A DNA stretch of 64,000 bases from a virus. The number at the start of each line of letters is the position of its first letter. Position 1 is the stretch's first letter. The stretch covers positions 107,369-171,368 of the IMG/VR virus record IMGVR_UViG_3300047557_001530. One strand, 5' to 3'. This document shows, piece by piece, positions 13,822-52,782 of this stretch. Under the pieces are notes generated by a model. The model did no database searches. It was not told the origin of the DNA and was given only the letters and a program-made list of their open reading frames with translations. Position numbers and translations under genes: made by a program.

Positions 13822-14259
13822 CTATACTCCTAAATGGTCTTCCGTGAGGATTAAAAATTTCATTTGTCTATCTTCACAGAAATCTTCTGCTGCTTCCCAT
13901 TTAGCACGATTTTTTATGTATGTTAGAACTTCTCTTTTCCAAGCAGCGGTTTTTCTTTTTGGTTTTTCTGTAGGACCAGTAACTTGTTTCTTTGGCTTGA
14001 CTTCTATTAGATATTTACTAACCCTACCATCTTTGCTTTTCACTTTAATATAAAAATCTGGATAGTATCTATGCACTCTGCCATCCGTAGGGCAACGGTA
14101 AGGAATAATTATTTCTTCACTACCCCATTCTATAATACTATTGTTATTATCACAAAATACCATAAACTTTCTTTCCCACATGGAACGATAGATGATCCTT
14201 GTGGGGTTCCCCCTATATTTTTTGGGGTTAGTGGGTTTATAGATTCCAGAGTATGCCAT
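13822..14259 (-). CDS. gp4: Head-completion nuclease gp4
   Basis: PTNPKKY.G, YRSMWERKFM, WGSEE, HRYYPDF, IEVKP, LTEDHL; start moved to 14259. Confidence 0.92.
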   Translation of the reverse strand: MAYSGIYKPTNPKKYRGNPTRIIYRSMWERKFMVFCDNNNSIIEWGSEEIIIPYRCPTDGRVHRYYPDFYIKVKSKDGRVSKYLIEVKPKKQVTGPTEKPKRKTAAWKREVLTYIKNRAKWEAAEDFCEDRQMKFLILTEDHLGV

Positions 14260-14289
14260 AAATAAATATATCCCTCCGAGTATATTTAG
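14257..14289. promoter_or_regulatory. Divergent T4-type late promoters
   Basis: CATAAATA on + (14257) and CTAAATA on - (TATTTAG, 14283-14289) in the gp4/gp54 intergenic segment. Confidence 0.6.
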
Positions 14290-14290
14290 A

Positions 14291-14995
14291 GTGGCAGGAT
14301 CAATTACCAATTTCATAAATGCTATCGCTAAAAATGGTGGCATGTCCATGTCAAATGGATATGACATTGAGTTTGATCTTAGTGGAACGCAAATTCAAAG
14401 TGTTCTAAGTCAATACAGTATTACGTTGCCAAGTGCAAATGATTCTGGAAATCCTGGTGCTTTGATTAATATGTTTTGCGATGAAGCACAGTTACCAAAT
14501 AGTCAAGCTGCTACTGGACAAATTAATGGTAGATATTTGGGCGAGGGTGTCGTAAATTATCCTCACACAAAACTAGTAAGTGACTTTTCTTTGACATGGA
14601 TGTGTGATGCTAATATGGCACCATACAAATTTTTAATGGCGTGGTATAATTATATTTTTAATGGCGTAGAAAATTCTAATAGCATAGAACAACAGTCTCC
14701 AGATAGTCTCAAAGAATTTAAGCAAAACGCCAAACCAAAACTTCCAAATCGCTCAACAAGATTACACTATCCAAAAGATTATCAAGCTACTTTAAGAATA
14801 GCTAAGACAGAAAAAGGAAATAACGCACCCAATAGTAGGGTTCCATTAGTATATGTTATGGAACAATGCTATCCATATTCCGTAGATGCTGTTCCTCTTT
14901 CTTATGGAACATCACAATTAACTAGGGTTACTGCCAATTTTTATTATAGCAAGCATACAATTTTCTTTGCAGACGTTCGTTCATTTAAGGGATAA
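14291..14995 (+). CDS. Tail-tube-fold protein (gp54-like tube initiator)
   Basis: CDEAQLP, YP.SV.AVPLSY..S.LTRVT..F.Y; syntenic position; GTG start. Confidence 0.7.
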   Translation: MAGSITNFINAIAKNGGMSMSNGYDIEFDLSGTQIQSVLSQYSITLPSANDSGNPGALINMFCDEAQLPNSQAATGQINGRYLGEGVVNYPHTKLVSDFSLTWMCDANMAPYKFLMAWYNYIFNGVENSNSIEQQSPDSLKEFKQNAKPKLPNRSTRLHYPKDYQATLRIAKTEKGNNAPNSRVPLVYVMEQCYPYSVDAVPLSYGTSQLTRVTANFYYSKHTIFFADVRSFKG

Positions 14996-15022
14996 ATAAT
15001 TAAACGATTTGACTAGAATAAT

Positions 15023-15736
15023 ATGGCATTACCTAAAATTGGTTATCCTACATTTGAACTGCAACTTCCTTCCAACGGCAAAACAATTAAGTACAGACCT
15101 TTTATAGTAAAAGAAGAAAAGGTTTTACTATTAGCACTTGAATCTGAAGACGAAGCCCAGATTAAAGATGCGGTAAAAAATTTAATTAAAAATTGTGTCA
15201 TCACAAGAATCAAAGTTGATGAACTACCTGCTTTTGATTTAGAATATCTGTTCCTCAGAATCAGAGCAGCATCTGTTGGAGAAATTGTCACCATGAATGT
15301 TGTCTGCAAAGATGACAATGAAACTCAGGTTGAAGTTGCTATTAATTTAAATGAAGTTGAGGTCTTTAAGCCAGAAGGTCATGTGAATAAAATTATGATC
15401 GGTGATGATATGGGTATTGTTATGAAGTACCCAAGCATGGATAGATTTATTGATGCAGAATTTTTAAATAAAGATATTAAAACAGAAGAAGTATTTGAAT
15501 TTATTGCTGATTCAATTGATCAAGTCTTCACAAAAGAAGATGTCTGGGATTCTTCCACAACGTCAAGAAAAGAAATGGTTGAGTGGGTGGAGACACTAAC
15601 CAATAAACAGTTTGAAGACATTCAAAAATTTTATGAGACAATGCCAAAACTACAGCATAAATTTACTGTGAAAAATCCAAAGACTGGACTTGAATCTGAA
15701 TATGAAATCGAGGGTATGCAGAATTTTTTCGCATAG
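15023..15736 (+). CDS. gp26: Baseplate hub assembly protein gp26
   Basis: MALPK, YRPFIVKEEKVLL, DLEYLFLRIRAASVGE, ETMPKL, C-terminal FF. Confidence 0.9.
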   Translation: MALPKIGYPTFELQLPSNGKTIKYRPFIVKEEKVLLLALESEDEAQIKDAVKNLIKNCVITRIKVDELPAFDLEYLFLRIRAASVGEIVTMNVVCKDDNETQVEVAINLNEVEVFKPEGHVNKIMIGDDMGIVMKYPSMDRFIDAEFLNKDIKTEEVFEFIADSIDQVFTKEDVWDSSTTSRKEMVEWVETLTNKQFEDIQKFYETMPKLQHKFTVKNPKTGLESEYEIEGMQNFFA

Positions 15737-15915
15737 CACTCTTCCAAAATAGTTTGGAAGGGTATTTTAAAACCAATTTTGCCTTGATGCAGCATCATAA
15801 ATACTCTTTGACAGAGATTGAAAGTCTCATGCCTTGGGAACGTGAAGTATATGTTTCTTTGTTATTGCAACACATACAAGAACAAGAAGCTAAACGGGAA
15901 GCAGCTAACAGGTAA
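15721..15915 (+). CDS. gp51: gp51-like hub assembly catalyst; first in-frame ATG only at 15787, possibly reached by -1 frameshift
   Basis: -1 frame reads FRIALFQNSLEGYFKTNFALMQHHKYSLTEIESLMPWEREVY. Confidence 0.75.
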   Translation, partial: EFFRIALFQNSLEGYFKTNFALMQHHKYSLTEIESLMPWEREVYVSLLLQHIQEQEAKREAANR

Positions 15916-18900
15916 TGAAAAATTCTGCCGAAAATAAATTTAATTTATCAAAAAGAGTAAGGCTACTCGGCAAAATTGTTGGCTATAATACTGCGTTTAA
16001 TTTAGTTGGATCTAAAAAATTAGGGCAAGGTGCCTTTGGTACTGTATATTCTTCCAGAGGTGCTGCTGTTAAAGTTGCTCATGCTAAAGGTCAAAAGGAA
16101 CTTAAGCATGAAGTTTCAATGCTTGAGCAATTAAAAGGTCTTAAGATAGCCCCACAGTTATTGGGCTCTGGAAAAGGATACGCTGCAATACAACAGTTTA
16201 AAGGTAATACATTAAATGATTCTGGAAATTTAAAAAGAATAAAAGAAGATCCAGTATTTGCTGATTATATTTTTAGAAAAATTGTTGAAGCAATGGGTGC
16301 ATTGCACCGCAAAAATATTGCTCAAAAAGATTTACATGCAGGAAACATTTTTATTACTGATGACTACCAAGTAAAAATTCTTGATTATGGTCAGGCATCT
16401 AAAGGGTATCCTATAACATACTACGAAACATTTTTTGGTAGTAACTATGACCCTAAGCAAGGGGCGATAGGATTAATACATCATTTGTTTTTAAATACTC
16501 AATCGTATAAAACATATAAGAGAATATTAATTAATGCAATAAGAATTATATGCAAAAAGAAAGGAATTAGTTCTAAAATTGCATTGCAAAATTATGAAGC
16601 AATAGAAGGTAACGAAGAAAAGGAAACAGAATATTTTAATGTCTTAGAAAATTTAGCTCGTCACCCTGAGAATGATCAATCAGATGTAAGCAATTTTTAC
16701 AGTGCTCTTGATACAGCATTAAAAATTAATACAAAAAATCCTTTAAAGACAAAAAGAGTATCATCCAAAACTAGATTACTATCTACATCTTCTACGACAG
16801 CTAGAAAAATAAATCAAAAGTATTCATTGAAAGGAACTATTCCACAAGCATCTGAAGGTGGAGTATTCTCTGGACCAGAAAGTGGCTATCCAGTTATACT
16901 ACATGGCACCGAAGCTGTCGTTCCATTGGATGATCTTAACATACCTCCAGCAAGATATATTCAAGGGCAAGCTGGTGTTTGGGAGCTAGAATTTGAATCA
17001 GTTCTAGATCATGCTATTTACTTTGCTGGCAAGTCTCCATTCCCCAAAGGTGCTAAACAAGCAGAAATACTAGATTGGTTGCAGGATACTTTAGGTATTA
17101 CCTGGAAAGATATTTCTGAACATCGTGATAAAATTATGGATACGATACGTCAGCTAACCCCTGACGCATGGGAAGGAGGCAACTATCCATATTTACATAT
17201 CCCTAGAGTCGATCCTGATTTTGAAATTGAAACTTATGCAGATGCTGATGAAGAAGAGCCAGATGATCTTGATGATTTATTAAATGAAATACGAGATGAA
17301 GATGAAGACGAAGATGAGGCTGAAGGTTTAGATGAATTACTTGATTTAATAAGGGATACATCTGTTTCTGATACAGAAGAAAAAGAAACAGAGAAAAAGA
17401 TAGAACAAGCAAACGATATTGCTGAAGACATTCAGATTGATCCAGATGTTTTATCTGATCTTCCCCCAAGTTTGCAAGCATCTTTAGTTAAAGTAATTAA
17501 TAGAAAAACAGGTGCTACTATTAATGCTGGTGATAAAAAAGAAACAACATCTGCAATTACTAACACTAAAATATACAGATTTTTAACAAATAATTTATTA
17601 AAAATTGAAGGGCAATTAGATTCTATTAATGCTTCTATCAAAGAACAAAATATTTTACTGCAAACTAATTTAGATTTAAATCTAAAAACATTGCAATCGG
17701 TAGAAGAACAGGATGCATTGTTAGAAAGAAAACTTGATACCATATTAGATCTTTATACTAATCAAACTTCTTTAATTAAAAAATACGAAGAAGATTTAAA
17801 GAGACAAGCAACTGAAGCTAGGTTAGAACAACAAAGAGATTCTGCATTTACTACTGGATTCACTGACGTTGGTGGGCATACATTAGATTCAAATAGTTTA
17901 CTCGGCAGATTGGTTAAATTTTTTGGTAAAAAAATAGCTGTAAAATTGTGGAAATTTTTACCATTAGCTATTAGATCAAGGGCTAAACTTTTAGGCAAAG
18001 CATTACGTCCAGGTAAACTACTTGGTAAAGTAGCTCAAAGAATAGCGGCAAAGAAAGCAGCAGACAAAGCAACTCAAAAAGCAACACAAAAATTTGTTGC
18101 AAAAGGTTTTGAACATATAGCATTACCAGCATTAAAATCTGCTGACAATGTTGCTGCTAAAGGAGTACAAAAATCTGGCGGCAATTTATTGCAGAGAGCT
18201 TTGAGCAGTTCTGTAGTTCAAAAAGCATTGGTTAAAAAACTTGGTAAAGAAGGTGCAGAAAAACTTACAGTTAAGTTAGCAGCTAAATTAATTCCTGGTG
18301 TTGCTACGGCATATGGATTAGGAGAAGGTTTAGCTAGAATAATGATGGGTGATGTCAAGGGTGGATTCTTATCATTTGGTAGTGCAATACCTGTAGCTGG
18401 ATATGGATTCGCTGCGGTGGATGTCTTGCGAGACATTGATGTGGCTGCATACACGAAACATATTGAAGGACCAGCAATGTCTGGTAAACTTGGCGATGAA
18501 CAGTTTGCTGCGTTCATTGCAGAGGCATTGGGAGTTACTGAAAATCAGTATGAAACAGGAACATTGAGTGCTAAACCTGGAGTTGCTATGCTTCATGGTA
18601 CAGAATTGATTGTGGATAAAAATCAATCAGAACAAATGAATCCAATGGCTATTGTTGGGGGCAGTTTATTAGCAGCAACAACAAATTATATTAACAGCAT
18701 GGGTCCTCTCGCAGCATCTATAGCTCCTACATTTAAGCAAGTTGCTGCTCCAATTGCAGAAGAATATGGTATTCCTAAAACATTTACACAAACAAAAGTT
18801 GGTGGAGCTTTACCTAATTTAAGTCAAGAACTTAAGAGAATAAAAGATAAAAGAAAACAAACACCAGAAGAAGAGCTTGAAGGCATTGAAAAAGATTTAT

Positions 18901-20333
18901 TAGAGACACAGAATTCAGAATCATTTGCAGAAAAATTATTAAAGATATTGGATCCTCAAGGAAGATTCCAAGAGTTACTTAAAAATATAAACAATCGTCC
19001 TACTCCAACAGTCGATGGAGATTCTTTAATGGCTGAAGGTGGTTATGCCGTAGAAGCATCGGATGTTGGGGATAAATTTGGTGATAGAGGAGGAAAGCAT
19101 AAAGGAATTGATATTGCTAGTAGCAAATTTAAAATGGGAACACCTATATCAATAATTAAACCTGGAGTTGTTGAGGATATTGGAAAACTTTCTGATGGAA
19201 CTGGAGATCCTGGTGGATGGGGGAATTTTGTTGTTGTTAAACATGATGATGGATTATATTCTTTATATGGTCATTTGAGTGAAGTTAATGCAACAAAAGG
19301 ACAAAGATTAGAACCATCTGCGAATGGAGTTTTCCCTGTTATCGGTAAAATTGGTAGCACAGGAAGATCGTCTGGTGCTCATTTGCACTTAGAAGTTGGA
19401 ACTGGTTGGACAGGAGGAACTTTAAAAGGACATATAAATCCACTTCCTATTGTAAATCAATTGATGCGTGGGGGCGGAAATATTAGAAAAGTTGATAGAC
19501 CAACTGGAACACCAGTAAAAGTTGAAGGTCTTGGCAAACAAGGTGTTATGGCTAATAAGAATTTTGGTTCTACTTCTGGCGTAGGATCAAAAGGATATTT
19601 AATTGTTCCTGGTCATGCTGCTGGAGGAGGAGCACCTGGAGAAGCAGCTTTAGTTAAACAATTAGCACAAAATGCATACAGCAACTTAAAGCAAAAATAT
19701 CCTGATGCAAACATTAAATATGTTGATGTAAATTCTATGTTTGAAGATACTGAAGCTGGTTTTAATAAACAAAAGCAATGGTATAAAAAAATGGAGCAAG
19801 AAGGATGGGAAGTATTAGAAGTTCACATGGATGCATCAATGGAATCTGGACAAGGAAGTGGACGAGGAGTTATTGTTCCTAAAGGAGAATTAAACGCAGT
19901 AGAAAAACATTTTGCAGAAAACTTTGGAGCATTTCCTAGAGGGCATAGAGATCTAGCAGCACCAAATAGAGGAGCTAGTATTTTTGAATTAGGTAATATG
20001 TCTCCAGAGTTGCAAAGATCTGTTCAATCAGGACAAGTAACAAAACAACAGTTAGATGCATTAACTTCTCCTTTTGAAAGATCTATTGCTGCTGGGTTAA
20101 ATTTACAATCAATCACTCCTCCATCTGGTCAACGACAAAGATTTGAATCGATGCAAGGTAAAGACAAAGATGCAGGCACTAAGCATTTAATCGTTAATCA
20201 AGCGACAAGACCTGCGGTTGGTGGTCAAGGATCACAAAATATTACTTTTGTCCCTATGGGTTCTGGTAGATGGAGAACAGAAAATGAATACTCGGACACT
20301 ATCAGAAGTCTTATTATGTCTAGATTACGATAA
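15915..20333 (+). CDS. Tape-measure-like virion protein with an N-terminal protein-kinase domain, an M23 peptidase and an amidase_3-like domain
   Basis: Kinase: LGQGAFGTVY, AVKV, HE, KDLHAGN, DYG. M23: HKGID, YGHL, HLHLEV. Amidase: IVPGH..E, EVHMD, FELGNM. Located after gp26/gp51. Confidence 0.8.
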   Translation: MKNSAENKFNLSKRVRLLGKIVGYNTAFNLVGSKKLGQGAFGTVYSSRGAAVKVAHAKGQKELKHEVSMLEQLKGLKIAPQLLGSGKGYAAIQQFKGNTLNDSGNLKRIKEDPVFADYIFRKIVEAMGALHRKNIAQKDLHAGNIFITDDYQVKILDYGQASKGYPITYYETFFGSNYDPKQGAIGLIHHLFLNTQSYKTYKRILINAIRIICKKKGISSKIALQNYEAIEGNEEKETEYFNVLENLARHPENDQSDVSNFYSALDTALKINTKNPLKTKRVSSKTRLLSTSSTTARKINQKYSLKGTIPQASEGGVFSGPESGYPVILHGTEAVVPLDDLNIPPARYIQGQAGVWELEFESVLDHAIYFAGKSPFPKGAKQAEILDWLQDTLGITWKDISEHRDKIMDTIRQLTPDAWEGGNYPYLHIPRVDPDFEIETYADADEEEPDDLDDLLNEIRDEDEDEDEAEGLDELLDLIRDTSVSDTEEKETEKKIEQANDIAEDIQIDPDVLSDLPPSLQASLVKVINRKTGATINAGDKKETTSAITNTKIYRFLTNNLLKIEGQLDSINASIKEQNILLQTNLDLNLKTLQSVEEQDALLERKLDTILDLYTNQTSLIKKYEEDLKRQATEARLEQQRDSAFTTGFTDVGGHTLDSNSLLGRLVKFFGKKIAVKLWKFLPLAIRSRAKLLGKALRPGKLLGKVAQRIAAKKAADKATQKATQKFVAKGFEHIALPALKSADNVAAKGVQKSGGNLLQRALSSSVVQKALVKKLGKEGAEKLTVKLAAKLIPGVATAYGLGEGLARIMMGDVKGGFLSFGSAIPVAGYGFAAVDVLRDIDVAAYTKHIEGPAMSGKLGDEQFAAFIAEALGVTENQYETGTLSAKPGVAMLHGTELIVDKNQSEQMNPMAIVGGSLLAATTNYINSMGPLAASIAPTFKQVAAPIAEEYGIPKTFTQTKVGGALPNLSQELKRIKDKRKQTPEEELEGIEKDLLETQNSESFAEKLLKILDPQGRFQELLKNINNRPTPTVDGDSLMAEGGYAVEASDVGDKFGDRGGKHKGIDIASSKFKMGTPISIIKPGVVEDIGKLSDGTGDPGGWGNFVVVKHDDGLYSLYGHLSEVNATKGQRLEPSANGVFPVIGKIGSTGRSSGAHLHLEVGTGWTGGTLKGHINPLPIVNQLMRGGGNIRKVDRPTGTPVKVEGLGKQGVMANKNFGSTSGVGSKGYLIVPGHAAGGGAPGEAALVKQLAQNAYSNLKQKYPDANIKYVDVNSMFEDTEAGFNKQKQWYKKMEQEGWEVLEVHMDASMESGQGSGRGVIVPKGELNAVEKHFAENFGAFPRGHRDLAAPNRGASIFELGNMSPELQRSVQSGQVTKQQLDALTSPFERSIAAGLNLQSITPPSGQRQRFESMQGKDKDAGTKHLIVNQATRPAVGGQGSQNITFVPMGSGRWRTENEYSDTIRSLIMSRLR

Positions 20334-20355
20334 ATATTTCGTCAGGGTATTATAA

Positions 20356-22914
20356 ATGGCAGCTTTTACAGAAGGGTTTTCATATCATGGAAATAATATT
20401 GATGTAGTATCTAAAGTTATGGCCGCTCGTTCGATGGCGAAGGCTGAACGAGAGTATGCTGAAAAAACTTTAGCTGCCCAACAAAAAAATGTCCCCGATG
20501 ATGATAAATTAAAGCTTGAAGATTTTGGTATTAAGAAAGGATACTTCTTTCGCAAAGCATTAAAGCATGAATTTGGTGGCGATTATTATTTAAGAAAAAA
20601 AGAAAAAATTTCTGACATTGTTTCTAGGGTTAAGTTACTAAAAAATCCTAGAAAGAATTTTTTTGAACTATTTGAAAAAAGAAAACCAACTACTAAATTT
20701 TCTAGATTTAGAAGTCAATTTGATTATAATTTTGAAACTTCTGATCCAGCAGTGCAAGCAAAGTCTCCAAAAATACCAGGAACAGCTAAGAAAATACAAA
20801 AAGCTACTGCTGGAAGTGGTAAACGAATTAGTAGAGAACAATTACTTGATTCTATTTCTGGAGTAGTTAAATCAATTGAATCAGTAGCAGACTCTATTCA
20901 ATCATCTTCTTCTGAAGTTAAACGAAATATTATATCATCTAATATAGCTCAAACTAATATTGCAGAACAATTAAAATCTAGAAATGATACTTTGTCTGAT
21001 AAATTAGACAAAATTGCTGCTGCTATATCTCAACAAACACAACTTCAAAAACAAACTGTAGATAAAAGAGAAGATCAACAAAGAGAAACTCGATTAGAAT
21101 CTCAAAAAGATGTTGCAAGAACTATTACTCCAGATGATTTGACAACACCTGAAGATGAAAGTCTTCAAGATACAAATGTAGATAATGATATTACACCAAC
21201 TACATCGATTACTAACATACAAAATTTAGTTCCTGATGCATATTCTCAAAGAAATGCTTGGCGTGAAGAAATGATGTCGAGAGCAAACATGCCACAACTA
21301 GAAAGAGGTGGCATAGTTTCTGGTCCTGATAGTGGTTATCTTGCCAAACTTCACGGCGATGAAATGATTGTTCCTTTGGATAATAATTATACTCAAGGGC
21401 AACCTAGTGCTGTTGATGGTAAGACAAGAAAAAAACCACAGATGTTTGAGAAAGGAACATCTGGAGTTGGTGGTAGATTTGGTTTTGGTACAACAAGAAA
21501 TTTAGGAATTGGTAATACATTTGCTTCTAGCATAACAAATATGTCACAACCATTAGTGGATGCGATGTCTTTACCAATGATGGTTGCTGGTGGTAGTGTT
21601 GTTGCAGCAACAACAAATCTTATGAAAAATTTAGGTGGTTCTGGAGAAGAATTGAGACCAGAAATTGAAAAGTTTTCTCGTCCAATATCAGATGCCTTTG
21701 GTGTTCCTCCAACAGTTATGAATAAAGCAAAAGCAGGAACAGTTAAAGGAAAGAAAGAAGAAGATAAAGCTGAAGAAGTATCTGGAGAATCTAAAAAAAA
21801 TATTATTGCCAAAATGATGGATGGATTTGGAAAACTTCTTGAGAAAATGAGTAATAGTATTAATGAAACTCCGCCACAAAATCCACCTGGAGGAGGTGAT
21901 CTATCGCCAGTAAATTTACAAGGATTTAGTCAGCAAGAAATTTCTGATCTTGGTAAAATGGTATATGCAGAAGCGGGTGCAGATCCAGCTGGATCATCTC
22001 ATGTTTTAAATGCAATTCTTAATCGTTACAGACAAGTAAAACAAGGAAAGGCAACTCCTCAAGCATGGGGAGTTAAAGAAGGAGTAACGGCACAAAATAT
22101 GACAATTACTGATTTATTAATGGCGGAAAATCAATTTCAGCCAGTACGTGATGGTAGATTTGCTAAAGTTTCTGCCGAACAAGGAACTCAAGCCTTGAAT
22201 GCAGCTATTGGTGCAGGCGGATTAGATCCAAAACAAATATATGAAAAAGCAAAGGCTGCTGGCTTATCTGATGCAGAAGCTAAAATGTTAGCAACATCAG
22301 ATACTTTTTATAATCCTACTGTAAGTTCAAATAAACCTTTTAATGCTCCTGTTGTCAATACTGCCAACAAACATGCATTTATGGCGTCACCAAATACTGG
22401 ATTTTCTCCCGCAGATTTAAATGCATTAACTGCTGTACAAAGAACACAACCACCAACAACGCAGCCATCAACATCACTTGGTCAACAGATCACTGAAAAT
22501 TATGGTATGAATATTCATGATAAATTTTATTTCAAACTTGGTGGCGTTGAATATCATGCTTATAAGACTGCAAAAGGATTTGATTTCTATAAAGGAGGAA
22601 CAAAAATAACTGATCCAGAAGAAGAGAGAAAAGTTATTCAAGGTTTTGTGAATTTAAAATCTCAAGCAATACAACGATCTGAAAATGCAACATCTTTGGC
22701 ACCGCCATCAACAAGACAAGCAAAAATAGATCAAGCTCAGCAATTAAATAGAAGTACAGATTCAAGTGGTGCTTCAACCATTGCATATTTAAATCTACCT
22801 TCTGCTCAATCAAAACCATCGTTGAATACACCTCCACCAACTTCTAATACCACAACTATTGGTAGAGGTTACGATCCATTAAATCAATCTGGTCTTTATA
22901 TCCCAACAGCATAA
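20356..22914 (+). CDS. Second tape-measure-like virion protein with a SleB/Hydrolase_2-like domain
   Basis: Shares GG.VSGP.SGY...LHG.E.(I/V)VPL with the upstream gene; MVYAEAG...ILNR...NQFQP. Confidence 0.7.
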   Translation: MAAFTEGFSYHGNNIDVVSKVMAARSMAKAEREYAEKTLAAQQKNVPDDDKLKLEDFGIKKGYFFRKALKHEFGGDYYLRKKEKISDIVSRVKLLKNPRKNFFELFEKRKPTTKFSRFRSQFDYNFETSDPAVQAKSPKIPGTAKKIQKATAGSGKRISREQLLDSISGVVKSIESVADSIQSSSSEVKRNIISSNIAQTNIAEQLKSRNDTLSDKLDKIAAAISQQTQLQKQTVDKREDQQRETRLESQKDVARTITPDDLTTPEDESLQDTNVDNDITPTTSITNIQNLVPDAYSQRNAWREEMMSRANMPQLERGGIVSGPDSGYLAKLHGDEMIVPLDNNYTQGQPSAVDGKTRKKPQMFEKGTSGVGGRFGFGTTRNLGIGNTFASSITNMSQPLVDAMSLPMMVAGGSVVAATTNLMKNLGGSGEELRPEIEKFSRPISDAFGVPPTVMNKAKAGTVKGKKEEDKAEEVSGESKKNIIAKMMDGFGKLLEKMSNSINETPPQNPPGGGDLSPVNLQGFSQQEISDLGKMVYAEAGADPAGSSHVLNAILNRYRQVKQGKATPQAWGVKEGVTAQNMTITDLLMAENQFQPVRDGRFAKVSAEQGTQALNAAIGAGGLDPKQIYEKAKAAGLSDAEAKMLATSDTFYNPTVSSNKPFNAPVVNTANKHAFMASPNTGFSPADLNALTAVQRTQPPTTQPSTSLGQQITENYGMNIHDKFYFKLGGVEYHAYKTAKGFDFYKGGTKITDPEEERKVIQGFVNLKSQAIQRSENATSLAPPSTRQAKIDQAQQLNRSTDSSGASTIAYLNLPSAQSKPSLNTPPPTSNTTTIGRGYDPLNQSGLYIPTA

Positions 22915-22918
22915 AATT

Positions 22919-24349
22919 ATGACACAACAGTTACCATACGCATCTAGTTTTATTCTAAAAGCTGCTACCATTTATCAGGTAGGAACGGATAAGGCCATTG
23001 ACATTACCAATATGGTAATACGTTTTGATTATTTTGAAAACATTAATTACCCAACCATCTCAGGAACTCTTGGTCTTGTAGATAACGGATCAAACTTAAT
23101 TGCATCTTTACCTATACAAGGGTTTGAAAAAATTAAATTAGAATTAAAGACTGGAGAAGACAAAGAATATACCTATGAGTTTAGAGTTTATAAAGTTCAA
23201 AATCGTTTTGCTGGGGATAGATTTCAAACATATACTTTGGGGTTGATATCTCTAGAGGCTATGTTAAATGAGGGAGTGCGAGTTGCAAAAACTTTAAAAG
23301 GAAAACCAGATAAAATAGTCAAAGAATTATTAGAAACAAATTTAAAAACTTCTAAGCCTGTAAATGTTGATCCATGTTTGTATAATATTATATTCAATCC
23401 AGGAAAAAAATCTCCATTTTCTATTATTGAATCAATTAAAATGAAATCTGTACCCCAGGGATCTTCAACAAAATCATCTGGCAAATCATCATTACCTGGG
23501 AAAACGGGTGGTTCAGAAACAAGTGTCGTCTCTTCAACTTCAGCAACAAATAAAGGAGATTACTCAAAGGTTTCTGGGACTGCTGGATATTTTTTCTTTG
23601 AAAACAAAGATGGTTTTTATTTTAAATCTATTGATTCATTATGTTCTATTGATAAATTTAATGGCTCTAAACCAGTAGCAAAATACACACAAGAAAATGT
23701 TGATGTTGGTGGACCTCCTAACAGAAAAATTATTGACATTGATTTCGTAGAAGAGATTGATATGATGAGTAAGTTAAGAATGGGAGCCTTCTCTTCTCTT
23801 GTTTGTTATTATAATTTTAGCACTGGGTCTTATGAAGAATATGTTTATTCTTTATCAGATTCCTATCAAAACATGGGACACATGGGAACACAGCAAGGAT
23901 TGCCTTATGGTCAAGCAGAGTTATCAAAGTATCCTACTCGCATCATGAGTGTTTTATTAGATCACGAGACATGGTTTAGTGGAGAAGGTATAGCATCCCC
24001 TGAAGAAAAAGATGGTGCTGGTGGCAGCACTACAAATTTCCCAGACTTTCAAAAAAGTTACATCTCCCAATCTATTTCTCGTTTAAATACATTACAAAAT
24101 CAAAAAGTAAAAATTACTGTTACAGGTAATCCAGATTTAAAAGTTGGAGACAAGATTGAAATTGAAATACCAAATCAAATACCTACCGCACAAAGAAGAG
24201 AACAGAAATATGATGAGGAACATAGCGGAGTGTATTTAATCTCAGAAATTAACCATGGTTTTGATATTAAAAAAAGACAAATGAATACATTCATCACGTT
24301 AATTCGTGATTCATATGGCAAGAGAGACACCGCTTCTAAAGTAAAATAA
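22919..24349 (+). CDS. Baseplate hub protein (gp27/gpD-like)
   Basis: YFENI..PTISG, YFFFENKDGFYFKSID, GNPDLKVGD, SGVYLI..I.H, LIRDS. Confidence 0.75.
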   Translation: MTQQLPYASSFILKAATIYQVGTDKAIDITNMVIRFDYFENINYPTISGTLGLVDNGSNLIASLPIQGFEKIKLELKTGEDKEYTYEFRVYKVQNRFAGDRFQTYTLGLISLEAMLNEGVRVAKTLKGKPDKIVKELLETNLKTSKPVNVDPCLYNIIFNPGKKSPFSIIESIKMKSVPQGSSTKSSGKSSLPGKTGGSETSVVSSTSATNKGDYSKVSGTAGYFFFENKDGFYFKSIDSLCSIDKFNGSKPVAKYTQENVDVGGPPNRKIIDIDFVEEIDMMSKLRMGAFSSLVCYYNFSTGSYEEYVYSLSDSYQNMGHMGTQQGLPYGQAELSKYPTRIMSVLLDHETWFSGEGIASPEEKDGAGGSTTNFPDFQKSYISQSISRLNTLQNQKVKITVTGNPDLKVGDKIEIEIPNQIPTAQRREQKYDEEHSGVYLISEINHGFDIKKRQMNTFITLIRDSYGKRDTASKVK

Positions 24350-24370
24350 ATAGTTAATAAAATTGTTGAT

Positions 24371-27259
24371 ATGGATCCAGTATTATCATCATTGTTTCCT
24401 GTTCATCAAATTGGTTCTGACGGATTCAATTGGTGGATTGGGCAGATAGAATCTAATAAAGATGATGACCCCAAAAAGTCTGGAAGATTTCGTGTGCGTA
24501 TTGTTGGACAGCATTTAAAAGAATGTGATGCTGTTCCGACAAATGAATTGCCTTGGGCAAACGTAATGATGCCCGTGACAACACCATTCACAGATGGATT
24601 AACTACTGGTGCTTCGATTGGATTAGAACAAGGTAATTGGGTTGTTGGATTTTATCTAGACAACGATAAACAAAAGCCTATTATCATGGGTTCTGTTGGA
24701 CATACGAAGGGAGCAACTATCCTTAAAAATGTTGATCCAAATCCAGGTAGTAAGTGTAAATCTTTTACAACATATATTTCAAACCAAGCTAATCCTAAAA
24801 CAGATTGGCCTTCAGTAAGTCAAAAAGGAACCAATGAAGAAGGGGCAAATGTAATTGCAGCGGGAGAACCTGCTGCATCATACGGACATATTCCTGGGCA
24901 AGTTCCGCCAGTAATTGCTGCACTGCTTGGAAAAAGATCTGAAACAAATCCAACTGGTGCAAAGCACAAATATATTATTGCAGATCCTAAGTGTGGCAGT
25001 GAAGGTAATTTAAAGAGTGGTATCACTAGGATTATTGGAGACCTATTAAAAGCAAACCAGGATGCTGGTGGTAGACTGGGAGACTATCTAGTTAGTAAAG
25101 CTAACGGAAAGTTGTATGATTATGTTGGCATTGCTAGATATCATATCGGTAGAGTAGTTACTCTAGTTAATAGTTTTATTGCTAGAGTTAAAGGTGAAAT
25201 TGTACGTTTGTTGCGTGAAGGAATTCAAAAACTTATTGATGCGTTGATTTTATTTGATGATCCTACGGGAAAAATTATTGGCAATACAGGTCCATTAGCT
25301 GATCCAGAAAAAGCTTTCAAACCTATTAGAGAGAAAGGAAACAGATTAAAGAAGATCAAAGAAATTTTTGATAAAATTTTTGCTGAACTTGGATGTAGTA
25401 TCGAGGACGCAGCAGATCGAATTGCCCAGTGGTTATTTGATTTATTGTTTGGATTTTTGACAGATGTTTTCTATCAAGCATCATGTTTTGTGGAGACTCT
25501 TATTCAAGGAATTCTAAATCAAATACTTTCTGTGCTTGAAGGATTAATTAGCACAGTTTTAGGTCCTGTTCAACAACTACTATCTGTTTTAGCTAATCCA
25601 TTAAACATTATTGGAAGTGCTATAAACAAAGTTCTATCTCTTCTTGGCATCTCTTGCTCTGGTCCTGGTGCAAAGTGCGAAAAGATTCAGGAAGTATCTG
25701 TAACTTGTGAAGAAGATGATACTGATGACAAAGATTTTCTTGACAAACTAATTGCTGATATCGAGAATGGTCCACTTGATTTTAATCAAGGAGTCTGTGA
25801 TGAAGCAAAAGGATTGCCGCCAGAAGAACCTACTGTGGTTGCTTTTGTTGGTGGAGTCTTCTCCAATCCTCCTACCACTACCACCTCTACGCCTCCTGGA
25901 GGCCCCGACACTCCATCTTCATTCTTCCCTGAGGCATATGATCCAGACGACGTTGTGGAGGCAGCAGAGCCTCCTGGAGATCTCCCAGAGGTAGTTCCTA
26001 ATGTTCCAGAACAAGAATTTGAACCTCCTCTTCCAGAAAATATAGAGGATCCTTACTACGAAGTAGAAACAGATAAAAATGTTTATGTTGAAGGAGAAAC
26101 AATTACTTATACAATTACAACTATTAACGTTCCTAATGGTACTAATCTGTCGTACACTTTATCTGGACCAACCATAACTGAAACTGATATTGTTGAAGGA
26201 TTGGAAGGAACTTTTACTATTCAAAACAATACTGCGGTAGTTCAAATTAATATTGCTTCTGATAATGTAGTTGAAAATATTCCAGAAATTTTAGTCTTTG
26301 AAATTAATAATACTACTGCCAACGCTACTGTTATCATTGATTCTAATTATGTTTTAGTTCCTGGAATTAATGACGATGTAACATTAGTTCCAACATACAA
26401 TGTTGTGTCTGATAAAATTCAATACACAGAAGGAGAAGACATTTATTATACCATTACTACAGAAAATGTAGATGATAATACTGTTTTATCTTATACATTA
26501 TTTGGAAATGCTATTACCCCAGATGATGTTGTTGGGGAAAATTTATCAGGATCTTTTATTATTACAAACAATACTGCTAAAGTTGTAGTTGGATTACAAG
26601 AAGATATTGAACTAGAATCTAATGAAATTCTTACCTTTGTTATAAATGGTACAGGTGTTTTCACTGACGTTACAATTATTGGTGAAGAAATTACAGAGGA
26701 AGAAATAACAGATGAGCCAAAGATTAATAAACCTATAGCTGGTACTCCTATTACAGATTCTAATGGTTCTATTATCAGCATACCAATTATTAACAAAGGA
26801 GATCCATATCAAAAAGAACCAAAAGTAATTATCGGTGGTAAAGGTTATGGTGCTACTGCTATAGCACTATTAGATAATGAAGGATTTGTTTCTGAAATTA
26901 GAGTGACACGCACAGGTGTAAATTATAAAACAAATACCACCGAAGATGCTGGTCTTGTATGTGTAGTTGATTCATATACATTAATTGCACCTGGAGTTGG
27001 TTATACATCGCCACCAAAAGTTTATGTTGATGGTGATGAAACACTAGCAGAAGCATTAATTAATGATGATGGTTATGTATTTGGTGTTAGAGTATTAGAT
27101 AGAAGTAAAACCTATTCCAAATTGCCAAAAGTAGAAATTGTTGGTGGTGATGGAGCAGGAGCTAAAGTTATTGCTAATATAACTTGTCTAGATAAAGAAG
27201 ATCTTGAGCGTAGAGGATACACTAAGATCGGAACTGGTAAATATATTGATTGTCCATAA
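24371..27259 (+). CDS. gp5: gp5-like hub protein (N-terminal OB fold, no lysozyme domain seen)
   Basis: WWIGQIE, GRFRVRIVGQH, LPWA, WVVGFYLD...QKPIIMGS. Confidence 0.8.
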   Translation: MDPVLSSLFPVHQIGSDGFNWWIGQIESNKDDDPKKSGRFRVRIVGQHLKECDAVPTNELPWANVMMPVTTPFTDGLTTGASIGLEQGNWVVGFYLDNDKQKPIIMGSVGHTKGATILKNVDPNPGSKCKSFTTYISNQANPKTDWPSVSQKGTNEEGANVIAAGEPAASYGHIPGQVPPVIAALLGKRSETNPTGAKHKYIIADPKCGSEGNLKSGITRIIGDLLKANQDAGGRLGDYLVSKANGKLYDYVGIARYHIGRVVTLVNSFIARVKGEIVRLLREGIQKLIDALILFDDPTGKIIGNTGPLADPEKAFKPIREKGNRLKKIKEIFDKIFAELGCSIEDAADRIAQWLFDLLFGFLTDVFYQASCFVETLIQGILNQILSVLEGLISTVLGPVQQLLSVLANPLNIIGSAINKVLSLLGISCSGPGAKCEKIQEVSVTCEEDDTDDKDFLDKLIADIENGPLDFNQGVCDEAKGLPPEEPTVVAFVGGVFSNPPTTTTSTPPGGPDTPSSFFPEAYDPDDVVEAAEPPGDLPEVVPNVPEQEFEPPLPENIEDPYYEVETDKNVYVEGETITYTITTINVPNGTNLSYTLSGPTITETDIVEGLEGTFTIQNNTAVVQINIASDNVVENIPEILVFEINNTTANATVIIDSNYVLVPGINDDVTLVPTYNVVSDKIQYTEGEDIYYTITTENVDDNTVLSYTLFGNAITPDDVVGENLSGSFIITNNTAKVVVGLQEDIELESNEILTFVINGTGVFTDVTIIGEEITEEEITDEPKINKPIAGTPITDSNGSIISIPIINKGDPYQKEPKVIIGGKGYGATAIALLDNEGFVSEIRVTRTGVNYKTNTTEDAGLVCVVDSYTLIAPGVGYTSPPKVYVDGDETLAEALINDDGYVFGVRVLDRSKTYSKLPKVEIVGGDGAGAKVIANITCLDKEDLERRGYTKIGTGKYIDCP

Positions 27260-28344
27260 TGGCACCGAGAACTCCCTTACAAAAAACTTCTGCAGTACAA
27301 CAAAAACTGCAGCAAAAAGGACCAGCAAGACCTGCTGGTGCTGATGCATTAGAACCAGGACAAATAGCAACAGATGCATGTTATGTCATAGCACAGAAAC
27401 ATGGATGGACTTTAGCAACATATAAAAATGAAGATGGTTCTTCTGGTGCAGTAATGACTAACGGAGAAGCAGCGATTCATTTTGATGCTAACAACCGTAT
27501 TATTATTGCTACAGGAGATCCTTCTCAAGGTGGTTGTGGAGGACAAGTTGTTATCAATGCTTCTGAAAGATTAGAGACAAGTAAAACTCAAACCATTCAC
27601 ATCACTGGCACTCCAAATGAAGAGCGTGTTAAAGGTAGCGATGGTAAAGAAGAGGTTAAGAAGAGACCTGCATATTCTTTGATGGTTGAAGGAGACATTG
27701 CAATTGAAGCTGCTGGAGAAGTAAGCATTGGTGGTAGTAATGTAACAGTTGTATCTAAAAATGTTTTAACATTAAAAGGAACTGAGATTAATTTAGAAGC
27801 AGGTAATGGTGGAGGAAAAGTTAATATTCATGCTGCAGACATCAGTAAAAATATTGCTTTTGAAAAAAATGTTAACACTGGTGGGTCTCACTCAGAAGTT
27901 AAGGGAGAATTTACAGTAAACCAAAAGTCTAATCCTGGTGCAGTAACAGCGTTTAACACTTTGGGTTCTTATAATGTATTGATAAGGGGAGATTATAATA
28001 TTAGTACGTTGGGACAATATCAGGTAAACGCACTAGGCAATATTTTAATGTCGTCTACTAAAGGTGGCTTCGCTACTATAGGATCTGGTAAATATTTTTC
28101 GTGGGTTGGTGGCATTAAAGATGAAAATATTTTAGGAAAAAGTATTTCTACTTCTACCACACCACCAATAACAACTTATTCATTAAAACTAGGACCCAAC
28201 AAAATAGGACTGCAAATTAATTCTACTGGATCAATTAATATGCAAGCCATTGGATCAGATGCTACAATTACTGCACCTACAGGAATTAATCTTTTTGCTG
28301 GTAAGAAATTAACCGCAGTTGCTGCTGCTATTTTCTTAAATTGA
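27250..28344 (+). CDS. Beta-helix spike protein (gp5 C-terminus-like)
   Basis: Gly-rich short beta repeats ending IFLN; directly after the gp5 N-terminal gene. Confidence 0.6.
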   Translation: MSIMAPRTPLQKTSAVQQKLQQKGPARPAGADALEPGQIATDACYVIAQKHGWTLATYKNEDGSSGAVMTNGEAAIHFDANNRIIIATGDPSQGGCGGQVVINASERLETSKTQTIHITGTPNEERVKGSDGKEEVKKRPAYSLMVEGDIAIEAAGEVSIGGSNVTVVSKNVLTLKGTEINLEAGNGGGKVNIHAADISKNIAFEKNVNTGGSHSEVKGEFTVNQKSNPGAVTAFNTLGSYNVLIRGDYNISTLGQYQVNALGNILMSSTKGGFATIGSGKYFSWVGGIKDENILGKSISTSTTPPITTYSLKLGPNKIGLQINSTGSINMQAIGSDATITAPTGINLFAGKKLTAVAAAIFLN

Positions 28345-38300: not shown

Positions 38301-41300
38301 AAATCCTATTGGTGGTTCAAACATTATTGAAGCACAAGAAGGTAATGCAACTTCTGGTTCTGAAAATAGAAGAATTCCAATTTCTGGTGATTCTGAATTC
38401 CCTCTAGAGCAAAAACTTTATGTAGAACTTCGTCGTCCATCGATTGCTCGTTCTGGAAACCATACGTTTGAATATCTTGGCTTCGGTCCTGGTAACTATT
38501 CAACTGGTTTCCCACTTCGTCAGGAAGTTGTTCTTTCAGATACTCAAGACTTCTATGCACAGTCTAAGCGTGAAGATGGTGGTATCGTATTCTACACGGG
38601 TCTAAACTCTAACGGCGATCTTTACATCGGTAATAGAAAGATTAATGCTATTACTGGCGAAGAAACATTCTTAGAGCAAGCAATTCTTGAGGAGTCGGAA
38701 GATGATAGTGGTGACAACCTAGGATCTCTTGTTACGACATTTGACGTACCAGTTACTTTCAATGATCGTATCGTTGTTGAAGGTGATGCCAACTTTAACA
38801 ATCCTGTCACAATTACGGTAGACGCAGATGAAGGTGTTGCGTTAAGAGTTACCAGCGTAGTTGATGATGAATTAGGAGATGATATTTCACTAAGCAATAA
38901 GCAGCATCAAAATAATAATGATGGTGACATTACACTTGGCAAAAATAGAATTAATTCTGCAATCTATGGTATCATTCCAAGACAAATTCTTGGTAATGAT
39001 GGTCAATCATATTCTATTAGAACTCATTATTCTGCATCAACTGGTCCTACCAATATTACTCCAGACCAAAATAAGAGATTCAATATTCTTCAAGAAGTTA
39101 GCTACAGCACAACCCAAAAACCAGAAAATGGCGATATCTTATTAAAAGGTAAAGAAGTTGGATTGTCTGGTTCTCTTGGTTGGATTTATGCAAACTATTT
39201 TACAGTAATTGGCAATTCTAATATTCAAAATATTGTTAGTGATGGAACTTCATTAACAATAAATTGGATTCCTACAGTAACAAACCAGCAATTAAATGTT
39301 GTTCCAGGATCTAAATTAAGAATTTCTAGTTTTAATACTAATGCTAATCTAAATGGTACTTGGACTGTTCTATCTTCTGGATTTAACGCTAGTGCAAACT
39401 TCTGTAAGATTGTAATTACAATTTTACCAGCAAATGGCACAATTTATAACATTCCATCAAACTCTACATTTGAAATTTCTAGAGCTAACTGGAAAGAATA
39501 TGGTGTAATTGGCAGTGAAACTCTCAGAACAAATACAGAAACATTTGGTAGCTATAAATTAGGTATTAATACTATTGCTAGAGCATCTGATAGTGCATAC
39601 ACTAGAGGATTTGTAGACTCCGCAAGCGAAAACAACATTGCTCCTAGAGCAAACTTAGATGTAGTTGGTGAAACATTTATTAGCGGCAAAAATGTAGCTA
39701 TCACAGTAACTGGTGGGGTACAAACTAAAACCGAAACATTCTCCAACAATGCGTTGTTGGTTGGTGGCGATAGTTTAACTCCTGCAAATGCTGCAACATT
39801 GAGAGTTGCTACTACAAATAATGGTAGAGTTGGCATTAATGCCACCAACACTCAGTTAGATCGCTCGTTGGTTGTAGTTGGTAATGGTAGAATTACTGGT
39901 GATTTTAGATTTGAAAGTGATATAGAAGTTAATGGTGGAGATATTACTACCACAAATACTACGTTTAATTTTGTAAATCAAAATACTCTCACTGCATTTA
40001 ACGCTGGTGCTAATGCTACTAGTGTTGCTCTGTTCAATACAACAACTGGCAATCAAACAATTGATGTAGGAACATCAGCACTTACGACTACATTTAATTT
40101 ACATACTGGGTCTACAAATTCAACTATCAATTTAGGAGTAGTTTCAAATACTCTAGCAACAAATCGTTCAAATATTACAATTGGTGGAGCTTTTAATAAT
40201 CCTCCTCAAAGTATTTTCCGTGTAAGAAATTACAGAACAATTTTTGATGGAAGATTAACAATTCGTGGTGGATTTATTGAAGTAGATGAAACAGTAAACA
40301 GCTTTACCATGTTCCCTGATGGGTTAACTGAACTTAAGATTGCTGGCTCTGCAGGAACAGTAGAAATCGGTGGTGTTGCTGGTAGAACTACAATTAGGCA
40401 CGGATTAAAAACTCTTGGATCTGCTATTTTTGAAGCTGATATTACTCAAAATGGTGGCTATAGAAATTCTAATGTTGGTGTTACAAGAAACATTTTTGGT
40501 ACTATCAATATTGTACAAGTCTCTAGATCTGGTAATATTGCTAGAATTGTTACTGAACAAAGTCATCAACTAACTACTGGCGATACTGTAGAAATTAAGT
40601 GTAGCATTGAGACATTCAATACTGCAACTCCTGTAGCAGTAACTGTTGTAAATTCCACCACATTTACTTATGCTAATACTGGCACTTTTGTAGCCACCAG
40701 CACTGCTGCTACAGGTAGAGTATTGAGATCTGTTGGTCAATCGCAGCCAACAGGTTCTCTATCTAATTTAAACATTGACTACTATGCAGTAATTTCAGAT
40801 TTTGCTGCTGTAATGAATGTTGATGCTGTATTGAACAACAAACTTCTAACAGCATCTCCTTATGTAACTGATAATGATCCAGTCAAGTTTACAGATGTTG
40901 GTAATTTAGCGGGTGTTAATTCAAATGATGTTTACTATGTAAAATCTTCTGATACATCAGGATTTACATTATCTTCAACAATAAATGGTCCTACACTTAC
41001 AATTTCTTTACAATCTGGTACTACCAGCCCAGGAACTGCTAGAATCGTACTAGCAGGAACTACAGTTGATACTGAAGGTGATGAATATTGGGGAAGTGTT
41101 GATTATCAAAACGAGGATGGCACTTATACTTTACCAATTAACAATCCTTCAAATATTGCTTCAAACCAATATCTATTAATTGGTACTGAAATTGTTCGTG
41201 TTGTATCTGACCCAACTCCAACAAGACCATTTACAGTAAATGTATTACGTGCTCAAGATGGAACTGCACAAGTTGCTCATGCTGATGGAGAAAGAATCGT

Positions 41301-52643: not shown

Positions 52644-52782
52644 AGTTTGTTCTCGTTGCGATACAGAAAAACCTTTGAATAAAGATCATTATCAAGTAGT
52701 AAAATCATTTAAATCAGGATTTTCTTACTATTGCAATGAATGTTCAATAGAAATGAAGAAAACTAAACCCGTCAATAAATAA
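52447..52782 (+). CDS. Small zinc-ribbon protein (true start probably near 52610)
   Basis: CSRC...YCNEC in the C-terminal half. Confidence 0.5.
   Translation: MKPSQNLNEPLLVLEIKSPSLQGLKLRIKCLQKTLINKSKNFIKNLRNSVRKNDPIGISLTTTTSRVCSRCDTEKPLNKDHYQVVKSFKSGFSYYCNECSIEMKKTKPVNK

Follow-up and report, generated by a model that had tools for sequence, protein, structure and literature searches.

A protein-kinase-like domain fused to a tape-measure-like hub-locus protein of a T4-like cyanomyovirus

Why would a gene in the tail-hub locus of a T4-like phage begin with a protein kinase? This question is raised by the open reading frame (ORF) at 15915-20333 (+ strand) of a 64,000-nucleotide (nt) stretch of IMG/VR virus record IMGVR_UViG_3300047557_001530. 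The whole stretch is referred to here as the window, and the domains and neighboring genes given below with coordinates are on the same strand. The product of this ORF, P0001, comprises 1472 residues with no internal stop and contains a protein-kinase-like domain, a hub-locus body, an M23 peptidase, and an amidase-like end, an overall architecture common to 23 homologue clusters. P0002 denotes the product of the following ORF (20356-22914), and other P numbers denote homologues. The source record is a 171-kb virus with an estimated completeness of 88%; its closest isolates are S-H9-1, S-CAM1, and S-CAM3 (T4-like cyanomyoviruses, Kyanoviridae), and the window is DNA of a T4-like cyanomyovirus. 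An earlier note on this DNA had suggested that the kinase is injected pre-formed with the DNA, or that it acts in tail assembly. We propose, with a probability of about one in two, that P0001 is a tail-hub-associated ejection protein carrying an exchangeable, catalytically competent kinase cargo that is delivered into the host.

Kinase domain of P0001

The N-terminal region of P0001, consisting of helices (residues 13-30) and a protein-kinase-like domain (residues 31-282; 15915-16760), was characterized by Pfam searches, an AlphaFold2 model, fold comparisons, and substitution rates. In the Pfam search with whole P0001, Pkinase (PF00069) matched residues 33-176 with 45.3 bits (E 9.5e-12), and residues 1-300 gave 48.6 bits, both scores above the curated cut-off of 31.7 bits; weaker matches to PK_Tyr_Ser-Thr and ABC1 fell on the same stretch. 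The kinase motifs listed in the earlier note were all present and in order, and with the Pfam, AlphaFold2, and Foldseek results they went well beyond chance. These were the Gly-rich loop LGQGAFGTVY (residues 36-45; 16020-16049), the pair formed by the beta-3 Lys53 of AAVK (16071-16073) and the helix-C Glu66 of LKHEV (16110-16112), and the region 16323-16391, which runs from the catalytic loop QKDLHAGN (residues 137-144; 16323-16346) through DYG (residues 157-159; 16383-16391). Among the 23 clusters (48-99% identity), G37, G39, and G42 of the Gly-rich loop, K53, E66, D139, H141, N144, D157, G159, E171, D179, and G183 were invariant.

The change of HRD to QKD that had been pointed out for the catalytic loop holds for P0001 itself and is a local variant, as most homologues carry QRD and five carry HRD. 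P0001 thus lacks the canonical HRD triplet, and it also lacks the catalytic-loop Lys of Ser/Thr kinases, whose position is occupied by the invariant His141. Only 14 residues separate DYG from the conserved Glu171, which corresponds to a short activation segment.

The AlphaFold2 model of the kinase region, built from a 23-sequence alignment, predicted a bilobal kinase fold with a mean predicted local distance difference test score (pLDDT) of 83.5, in which residues 7-282 were folded and residues 283-330 were disordered. The best 500 matches counted in the Foldseek comparison with the PDB (50 shown) were protein kinases with a probability of 1.0. VIA-align gave a Z score of 14.1 and a root mean square deviation (rmsd) of 3.3 Å over 193-213 residues to CRAF, PDK1, and KIT. 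In a fold search independent of Foldseek, Rio2 (Z 14.1), Rio1 (Z 13.8), and Csk and PDK1 (Z 13.4) were effectively tied, and no APH or ChoK chain occurred in the top 50; over the two comparisons, the rmsd to Rio2, PDK1, and CRAF ranged from 3.3 to 3.9 Å over 173-213 residues. Given the short activation segment and the His in place of the catalytic-loop Lys, the sequence and the model together identify the domain as an atypical representative of the protein-kinase-like superfamily; its GxGxFGxV loop is canonical, and it is equidistant from RIO and canonical kinases. A comparison with NCBIfam assigned it to no named equivalog; the best matches, far under the cut-off, were to class III/IV lanthionine synthetases in their kinase domains. 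Automatic JGI names of the homologues register both the hydrolase and the kinase, as in 'murein DD-endopeptidase MepM/.../serine/threonine protein kinase'.

The kinase was the best-conserved part of P0001, with a mean identity to P0001 of 65% among homologues versus 27-44% for most other regions. The ratio of nonsynonymous to synonymous substitution rates (dN/dS) of the domain was 0.062 at a dS of 0.375, and 0.10 and 0.19 against more distant relatives, demonstrating purifying selection. Taken together, the predicted fold, the invariant residues, the conservation, and the dN/dS values suggested that the domain is translated, functional, and probably catalytic.

Start codon and reading frame

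In the sequence TAATG, the ATG of P0001 at 15915 shares its first base with the stop codon TAA of the preceding gp51C-like ORF, and the frame is closed immediately 5' of this codon. The N-terminus MKNSAENKF.LSKRVR, beginning at the same Met, was found in 21 of the 23 homologue clusters. The overlap, the closed upstream frame, and the conserved N-terminus thus indicated that the start at 15915 is sound and that the kinase is translated as part of the long protein. A downstream start giving the main product, which would have left the domain untranslated, was ruled out by the conserved N-terminus and the dN/dS of 0.06; an additional internal start may exist. An assembly chimera was likewise ruled out, since samples from JGI, ENA, NCBI, and Logan yielded the fusion in 23 clusters.

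Exchange of the N-terminal domain

A search with the body of P0001 (residues 500-1030) recovered 66 clusters, many of which had no kinase. The kinase-less proteins began with N-termini of unrelated types (e.g., 'MIPKKAIKK...' and 'PPEGILDP...'), and Pfam searches of these alternative modules (types A, B, and O) and of P0001 residues 280-500 returned sub-threshold noise only. Pairwise alignments placed the breakpoint at P0001 residue ~341-352, directly after a conserved motif, GGVFSGPESGYPVILHGTEAVVPL (motif 1, residues 313-340; 16851-16934). From the breakpoint to the end, the kinase-bearing P0017 and the type A protein P0181 were 70% identical and P0015 and P0175 were 79% identical, and P0014 and P0194 shared 84-88% identity over their aligning segments. 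As judged from these alignments, residues 1 to ~340, comprising the kinase, a linker, and motif 1, constitute a cassette, one of several that are interchangeable at the N-terminus. The swapped N-termini of orthologues bear out the view that the kinase is an added module and set its limit at motif 1. A quick maximum-likelihood tree computed from the body required, at well-supported branches, at least six gains or losses of the kinase.

The fused kinase was the only Pkinase in the phage under study, and no Pkinase match was detected genome-wide in the kinase-less isolates S-H9-1, S-CAM1, and Sf-FR1. Because carriers of kinase-less orthologues encode no such kinase elsewhere, the domain is accessory and not required to build the tail. 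The alternative role in tail assembly is consequently unlikely, as close relatives build the same protein without it.

In other T4-like phages, a kinase of the same family, complete with the N-terminal LSKRVR helix, forms the start of the second hub-locus protein. P0025 (kinase and SleB-like hydrolase) is encoded between a 687-residue M23 protein and phrog_350/gp5-like genes. P0028 (kinase, M23, and lysozyme) follows a 749-residue protein, and a lysozyme2 protein and endonuclease V precede phrog_350 at that locus; P0027 follows an 847-residue first protein. An exhaustive profile-free search of 1.8 billion representatives yielded only seven with E <1e-30, and the contexts examined among these were hub-locus proteins with a kinase. 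Thus, to judge from the sequences compared, the kinase has repeatedly been joined to the N-terminus of hub-locus proteins that bear lysins. No named isolate was present among the cluster members looked up, which included two kinase-bearing clusters.

Some kinase-bearing homologues, P0010, P0012, and P0013, contained an extra ~150 residues (residues ~340-495) between the kinase cassette and the start of the body; the N-terminal slot can therefore hold more than one module.

Linkers, body, and hydrolase domains

Downstream of the kinase, a Ser/Thr-rich basic linker (residues 283-312; 16761-16850) was predicted to be disordered (pLDDT <50) and showed 41% mean identity to P0001 among homologues. 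Motif 1, which follows and marks the end of the swappable cassette, resembles the C-terminal motif of lambda gpH at gpH residues 750-770 (GG..LHG.E.V; GG...H..E.V type). The body starts with an alpha/beta domain of ~90 residues (residues 345-435, RYIQGQ.G.WELEF..D.AIYFAGK...; 16947-17219), which also opens the body of orthologues with different N-terminal modules in every case where the junction motif could be located. Its predicted fold had a pLDDT of ~80-90 and no convincing PDB match (Foldseek E of at least 2.8; best VIA Z 3.3, to winged-helix-like regulators), and a PDB sequence search with residues 300-440 gave no matches. An acidic stretch recognized by its composition (residues ~431-500; ~17205-17414), of which residues ~436-500 (17220-17414) form the linker after the alpha/beta domain, lies where the earlier note had placed an acidic linker and a possible processing site.

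The main body (residues 501-880; 17415-18554) combines coiled-coil, Lys/Ala-rich sequence with Gly/Ala-rich hydrophobic sequence and has a core in common with S-CAM1 YP_007672999 and phrog_11440. It is followed at 18555-18794 by motif 2, AMLHGTELIV (residues ~885-903; a second LHGTE copy at ~893), and a hydrophobic segment that also occurs in P0002.

The M23 peptidase domain (PF01551; residues 1061-1162; 19095-19400) scored 61.9 bits against a cut-off of 28.7 bits (E 6.7e-17), carries HKGID and HLHLE metal motifs, and matched M23 chains of the PDB. The Amidase_3-like region (PF01520; residues ~1226-1400; 19590-20114) was assigned weakly and by way of homologues: residues 1180-1472 of P0001 gave no Amidase_3 match even at E 10, the family was found in P0010 (E 6.3e-8) and in precomputed matches for P0003 and others, and the C-terminal region of P0001 aligned weakly to P0010 (22% identity, E 7e-10).

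The hydrolase end was mosaic in a comparison of 19095-20333 with L026:3001-7503. The kinase of P0004 was 95% identical to that of P0001 (dN 0.023), whereas dN was 0.73 for M23 and 0.73-0.91 for M23 and the region downstream. Since the kinase is near-identical and the hydrolase end strongly diverged, both ends of the carrier have been exchanged.

Gene neighborhood and expression signals

The genes around P0001 are arranged in the order tail-tube family protein (PF23849; 14291-14995), gp26-like baseplate hub protein (PF12322; 15023-15736), small ORF similar to the gp51 C-terminus (15787-15915), P0001, P0002, phrog_350 tail protein (22919-24349), gp5-like hub/spike protein with an OB-fold (Gp5_OB; 24371-27259), and phrog_4540 baseplate hub protein (27250-28344). 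The tail-tube and gp26-like genes were assigned by Pfam, the phrog_350 and phrog_4540 genes by PHROG, and the gp5-like gene by both; the gp51C assignment came from a weak Gp51_C match in the syntenic ORF of L018, a 189-kb contig that encodes the homologue P0015 and has the identical gene order. T4 gp27 and the phrog_350 protein gave nothing significant in BLASTP.

P0002 (852 residues; 20356-22914) contains the motif GG.VSGP.SGY..LHG.E, which is 47% identical over 47 residues between the two proteins, and it has no kinase, as had been noted from the sequence before. The P0002 copy (GG..SGP.SGY..LHG.E.VPL) lies at residues ~315-340, the same distance from the N-terminus as in P0001, and the shared hydrophobic segment reads AGGS..AATTN. 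P0002 also showed a weak SleB-like Hydrolase_2 match (E 0.007); it had no matches in a PDB sequence search and nothing significant in BLASTP with S-CRM01 g61.

The P0001 gene is probably translationally coupled to the gp26/gp51C genes. At the end of the gp26-like ORF (AAT TTT TTC GCA TAG), a heptamer T_TTT_TTC occurs at 15724-15730, and within 15706-15915 the -1 frame, open from 15706, continues into the gp51C-like ORF (first ATG at 15787). A programmed frameshift at this heptamer could join gp26 to gp51C.

Cores of the sequence ATAAATA, the T4 late promoter minus its first base, were found 19-25 nt 5' of the starts at 14291, 15023, 20356, 24371, and 52802, and 14 of the 15 copies in the window were on the + strand. 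The motif was not enriched overall in the window (15 copies versus 25 expected from shuffles), and the exact T4 late promoter TATAAATA was not found near the P0001 gene. The placement of these predicted signals, if not their number, agrees with late expression of a structural type. Listed by position, cores occur at 14258-14268, 14992-14998, 20330-20336, 24346-24352, 32284-32290, and 52775-52781, 19-42 nt before starts of structural genes. An ORF of 3445 residues (32332-42669) has an exact TATAAATA upstream, at 32283-32290.

Proposed function of P0001

The P0001 gene lies between tail-tube/hub-chaperone and hub/spike genes, the gene position of a tape measure. Because similarity to T4 gp29 was undetectable, 'tape-measure-like', the term used for P0001 from the outset, denotes a reading from synteny, composition, the gpH-like motif, and the hydrolase domains; P0001 and P0002 compete for the role. 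M23 domains also occur in the solved phage chains 9m7n ('Gp16') and 9k2v ('Internal protein'). S-CRM01 has a single 864-residue protein at the equivalent position and a reported tail of 140-170 nm, corresponding to ~0.16-0.20 nm per residue. In S-CREM2, whose tail measures 418 nm, 'endolysins' of 1565 and 1456 residues are encoded directly upstream of central-spike genes; both were found in virions, with 73 and 71 peptides, and were proposed by the authors to be encapsidated (PMC10665884). These peptides suggest, by position, that hub-locus proteins are virion components; S-CREM2 was absent among the phage-collection matches listed. The presence of one protein in S-CRM01 and of two ~1500-residue proteins in S-CREM2 raises the idea of a two-part tape measure. 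An injected, pre-formed kinase has become a more plausible suggestion through the virion proteomics of such phages, and the general idea is not new, because related kinases have been reported in virions (PMC10665884).

In the mechanism that we infer, P0001 would be expressed late and, as a tape-measure- or tail-lumen-like protein, would be assembled into the tail hub or lumen of the virion, where the covalent tether would load a few kinase copies per particle. On contraction of the tail, P0001 would be expelled ahead of or together with the DNA. The C-terminal M23 domain and the possible amidase would reach the peptidoglycan first and cut the host cell wall, the hydrophobic and coiled-coil middle, in or leaving the tail channel, would engage the membrane, and last, from its position nearest the head, the N-terminal kinase would arrive in the cytoplasm, where ATP is available. 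The tape measures of lambda and T5 are the basis for placing the hydrolase-bearing C-terminus distal and the N-terminus proximal to the head. If enzymatically active there, the kinase would phosphorylate host or defence proteins, its presumed substrates, before any phage gene is expressed.

Several points weigh against this proposal. A folded kinase of ~30 kDa, present in 3-6 copies, would not fit the ~4-nm lumen of a tail tube. The kinase would have to be unfolded and then refold after ejection, as is thought to apply to T7 internal proteins, or it would lie in the hub or neck, or be removed. BLASTP detected no similarity between P0001 and T4 gp29 (E 0.7) and matched P0002 to gp29 through coiled coil only (E 0.034), and each of the two adjacent proteins could be the tape measure. 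To judge from the sequence, a protein substrate is not certain, given the short activation segment and the invariant His141 at the position of the catalytic-loop Lys. ORF208 and ORF209 of S-CREM2 are putative counterparts of P0001 and P0002, by position, and a virion location of the fusion is suggested by proteomics of relatives whose kinases are separate proteins. Moreover, abundant non-structural proteins can co-purify with virions, as the authors of that work noted (PMC10665884).

We consider it rather doubtful, if attractive, that P0001 presents a polymorphic N-terminal effector slot from which an active kinase is threaded through the tail and refolds ahead of the DNA as a first strike on defence or regulatory proteins. 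The near-identical carriers with and without the kinase cassette form a natural comparison of the benefit of a pre-loaded kinase, and the N-termini of such tail proteins are a place to look for further delivered effectors.

Alternative explanations

The fused kinase could act only late in the producing cell, with itself, the hydrolases, or hub proteins as substrates, so as to set the timing of assembly or keep the lysins inactive, and then be cleaved off or stay inert in the particle. Such a role would suit a gene in the late structural cluster and a cell in which ATP is present; the Ser/Thr-rich disordered linker directly after the kinase and the conserved motif at the cassette boundary, which could be a processing site, are also consistent with it. 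We nevertheless regard it as unlikely, because orthologues 70-84% identical downstream are free of the kinase and have none elsewhere in the genome, so that assembly proceeds without it, and because rapid cassette turnover is more typical of accessory, conflict-driven functions. The occurrence of related free-standing kinases in virions also argues against action confined to the producing cell (PMC10665884).

P0001 might instead be a capsid-internal ejection protein, similar to T4 Alt, T7 gp16, or N4 vRNAP, with a gene that lies in the hub locus by chance, in which case the kinase would still be delivered. The only solved large phage proteins matched via M23 are the ones named 'Gp16' and 'Internal protein', the 'endolysins' at the equivalent S-CREM2 locus were proposed to be encapsidated, and gp29 similarity is missing. 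Against these stand the tight linkage to gp26/gp51C, the position upstream of the gp5-like spike, the lambda-gpH-like motif, the coiled-coil and hydrophobic body typical of tape measures, and the length of the 864-residue S-CRM01 protein relative to its tail, and we consider this placement distinctly improbable.

There is still less to recommend the view that the domain is a pseudokinase, retained as a plug or for binding and incapable of phosphotransfer. The replacement of the HRD His by Gln here and in most homologues, the His at the position of the catalytic-loop Lys, and the very short activation segment would be in keeping with such a protein. Pseudokinases, however, typically lose at least one catalytic residue, whereas the ATP/Mg and catalytic residues (GxGxxG, K53, E66, D139, N144, and D157) are all invariant here and dN/dS is 0.06.

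We rate lowest the possibility that the domain acts on a small molecule or glycan, as do kinases of the APH, ChoK, Kdo, and WaaP types, and so modifies an envelope component or metabolite: the DLH..N catalytic loop resembles that of APH- and ELK-type kinases, weak ABC1, APH, Kdo-kinase, and RfaY matches exist, the closest isolate relative is annotated as APH-like, and the fusion partners act on the envelope, but Pkinase scores far better than any other family, the Gly loop is canonical, the fold search was led by RIO and protein kinases with APH and ChoK missing from its top 50, and the periplasm has no ATP.

Comparison with known systems

The closest known counterparts of the fused kinase are virion kinases of other cyanophages. 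Kinases were found by mass spectrometry in purified virions of S-CRM01, S-TIM5, and S-CBWM1, with a homologue in S-CREM2, and were proposed to enter the host at infection (PMC10665884). Among the nearest predicted viral structures in BFVD, ranks 1, 4, 8, 9, 13, and 24 were taken by F5B400, three kinases of S-CBWM1, and those of S-H34 and S-TIM5; F5B400 is an 821-residue entry, the same length as S-CRM01 g130. The S-CBWM1 kinases near the P0001 domain were APH-like, RIO-like, and ChoK-like. In BLASTP, the P0001 kinase matched S-CRM01 g130 around the catalytic loop (E 3e-8), and the best isolate match in tblastn was the APH-like kinase of S-CBWM1 (31.5% identity, E 2e-6). These virion kinases share with P0001 the protein-kinase-like fold, an origin in cyanomyoviruses, and a similar catalytic loop, D(L/M)H..N(I/V)F. 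They differ in being separate from hub genes (S-CRM01 g130, S-TIM5, S-CBWM1, and S-CREM2 ORF14): g130 sits among replication genes, and the S-CBWM1 kinases are stand-alone proteins of ~300 residues, whereas the P0001 kinase is fused. Covalent fusion to a cell-wall-hydrolase protein of the hub locus would, unlike separate virion kinases, give an obvious, built-in packaging route, and could represent the route behind the virion-associated cyanophage kinases.

Compared with lambda gpH, T4 gp29, and the phage chains 9m7n and 9k2v, P0001 has a similarly long, coiled-coil and hydrophobic body, an M23 domain, tail-tube, hub-chaperone, and spike neighbors, and a gpH-like motif. Unlike those tape-measure and ejection proteins, it carries an N-terminal kinase, is one of two such proteins in tandem, and has no gp29 similarity. 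T4 Alt (T4p200), described in the T4 record as 'present in T4 capsid and enters the host with the infecting DNA', offers a parallel in concept, being a late product that is packaged and enters together with the DNA to modify the host before phage transcription begins; it is an ADP-ribosyltransferase of the head, with no tail or hub protein attached. Host reprogramming or the countering of host defences is also known from T7 gp0.7 and other early phage Ser/Thr kinases, which are synthesized from early genes once the DNA has entered and are unfused to structural proteins, whereas the P0001 kinase gene is part of a late structural cluster.

Our literature searches returned no description of an ejected phage kinase, or of a tape-measure or hub protein with a fused kinase. 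The covalent, recurrent, cassette-like combination of a kinase with a hydrolase-bearing ejection protein thus appears to be undescribed, each half being already known. An analogy in organization is provided by evolved VgrG and PAAR proteins of type VI secretion and by MuF toxins of phage heads, in which a conserved carrier bears a rapidly exchanged terminal enzyme module, usually a C-terminal toxin. P0001 instead bears a kinase at its N-terminus, and no enzyme domain is recognizable in the alternative modules. If the kinase is indeed delivered, P0001 and its relatives would represent a phage counterpart of evolved VgrG effectors.

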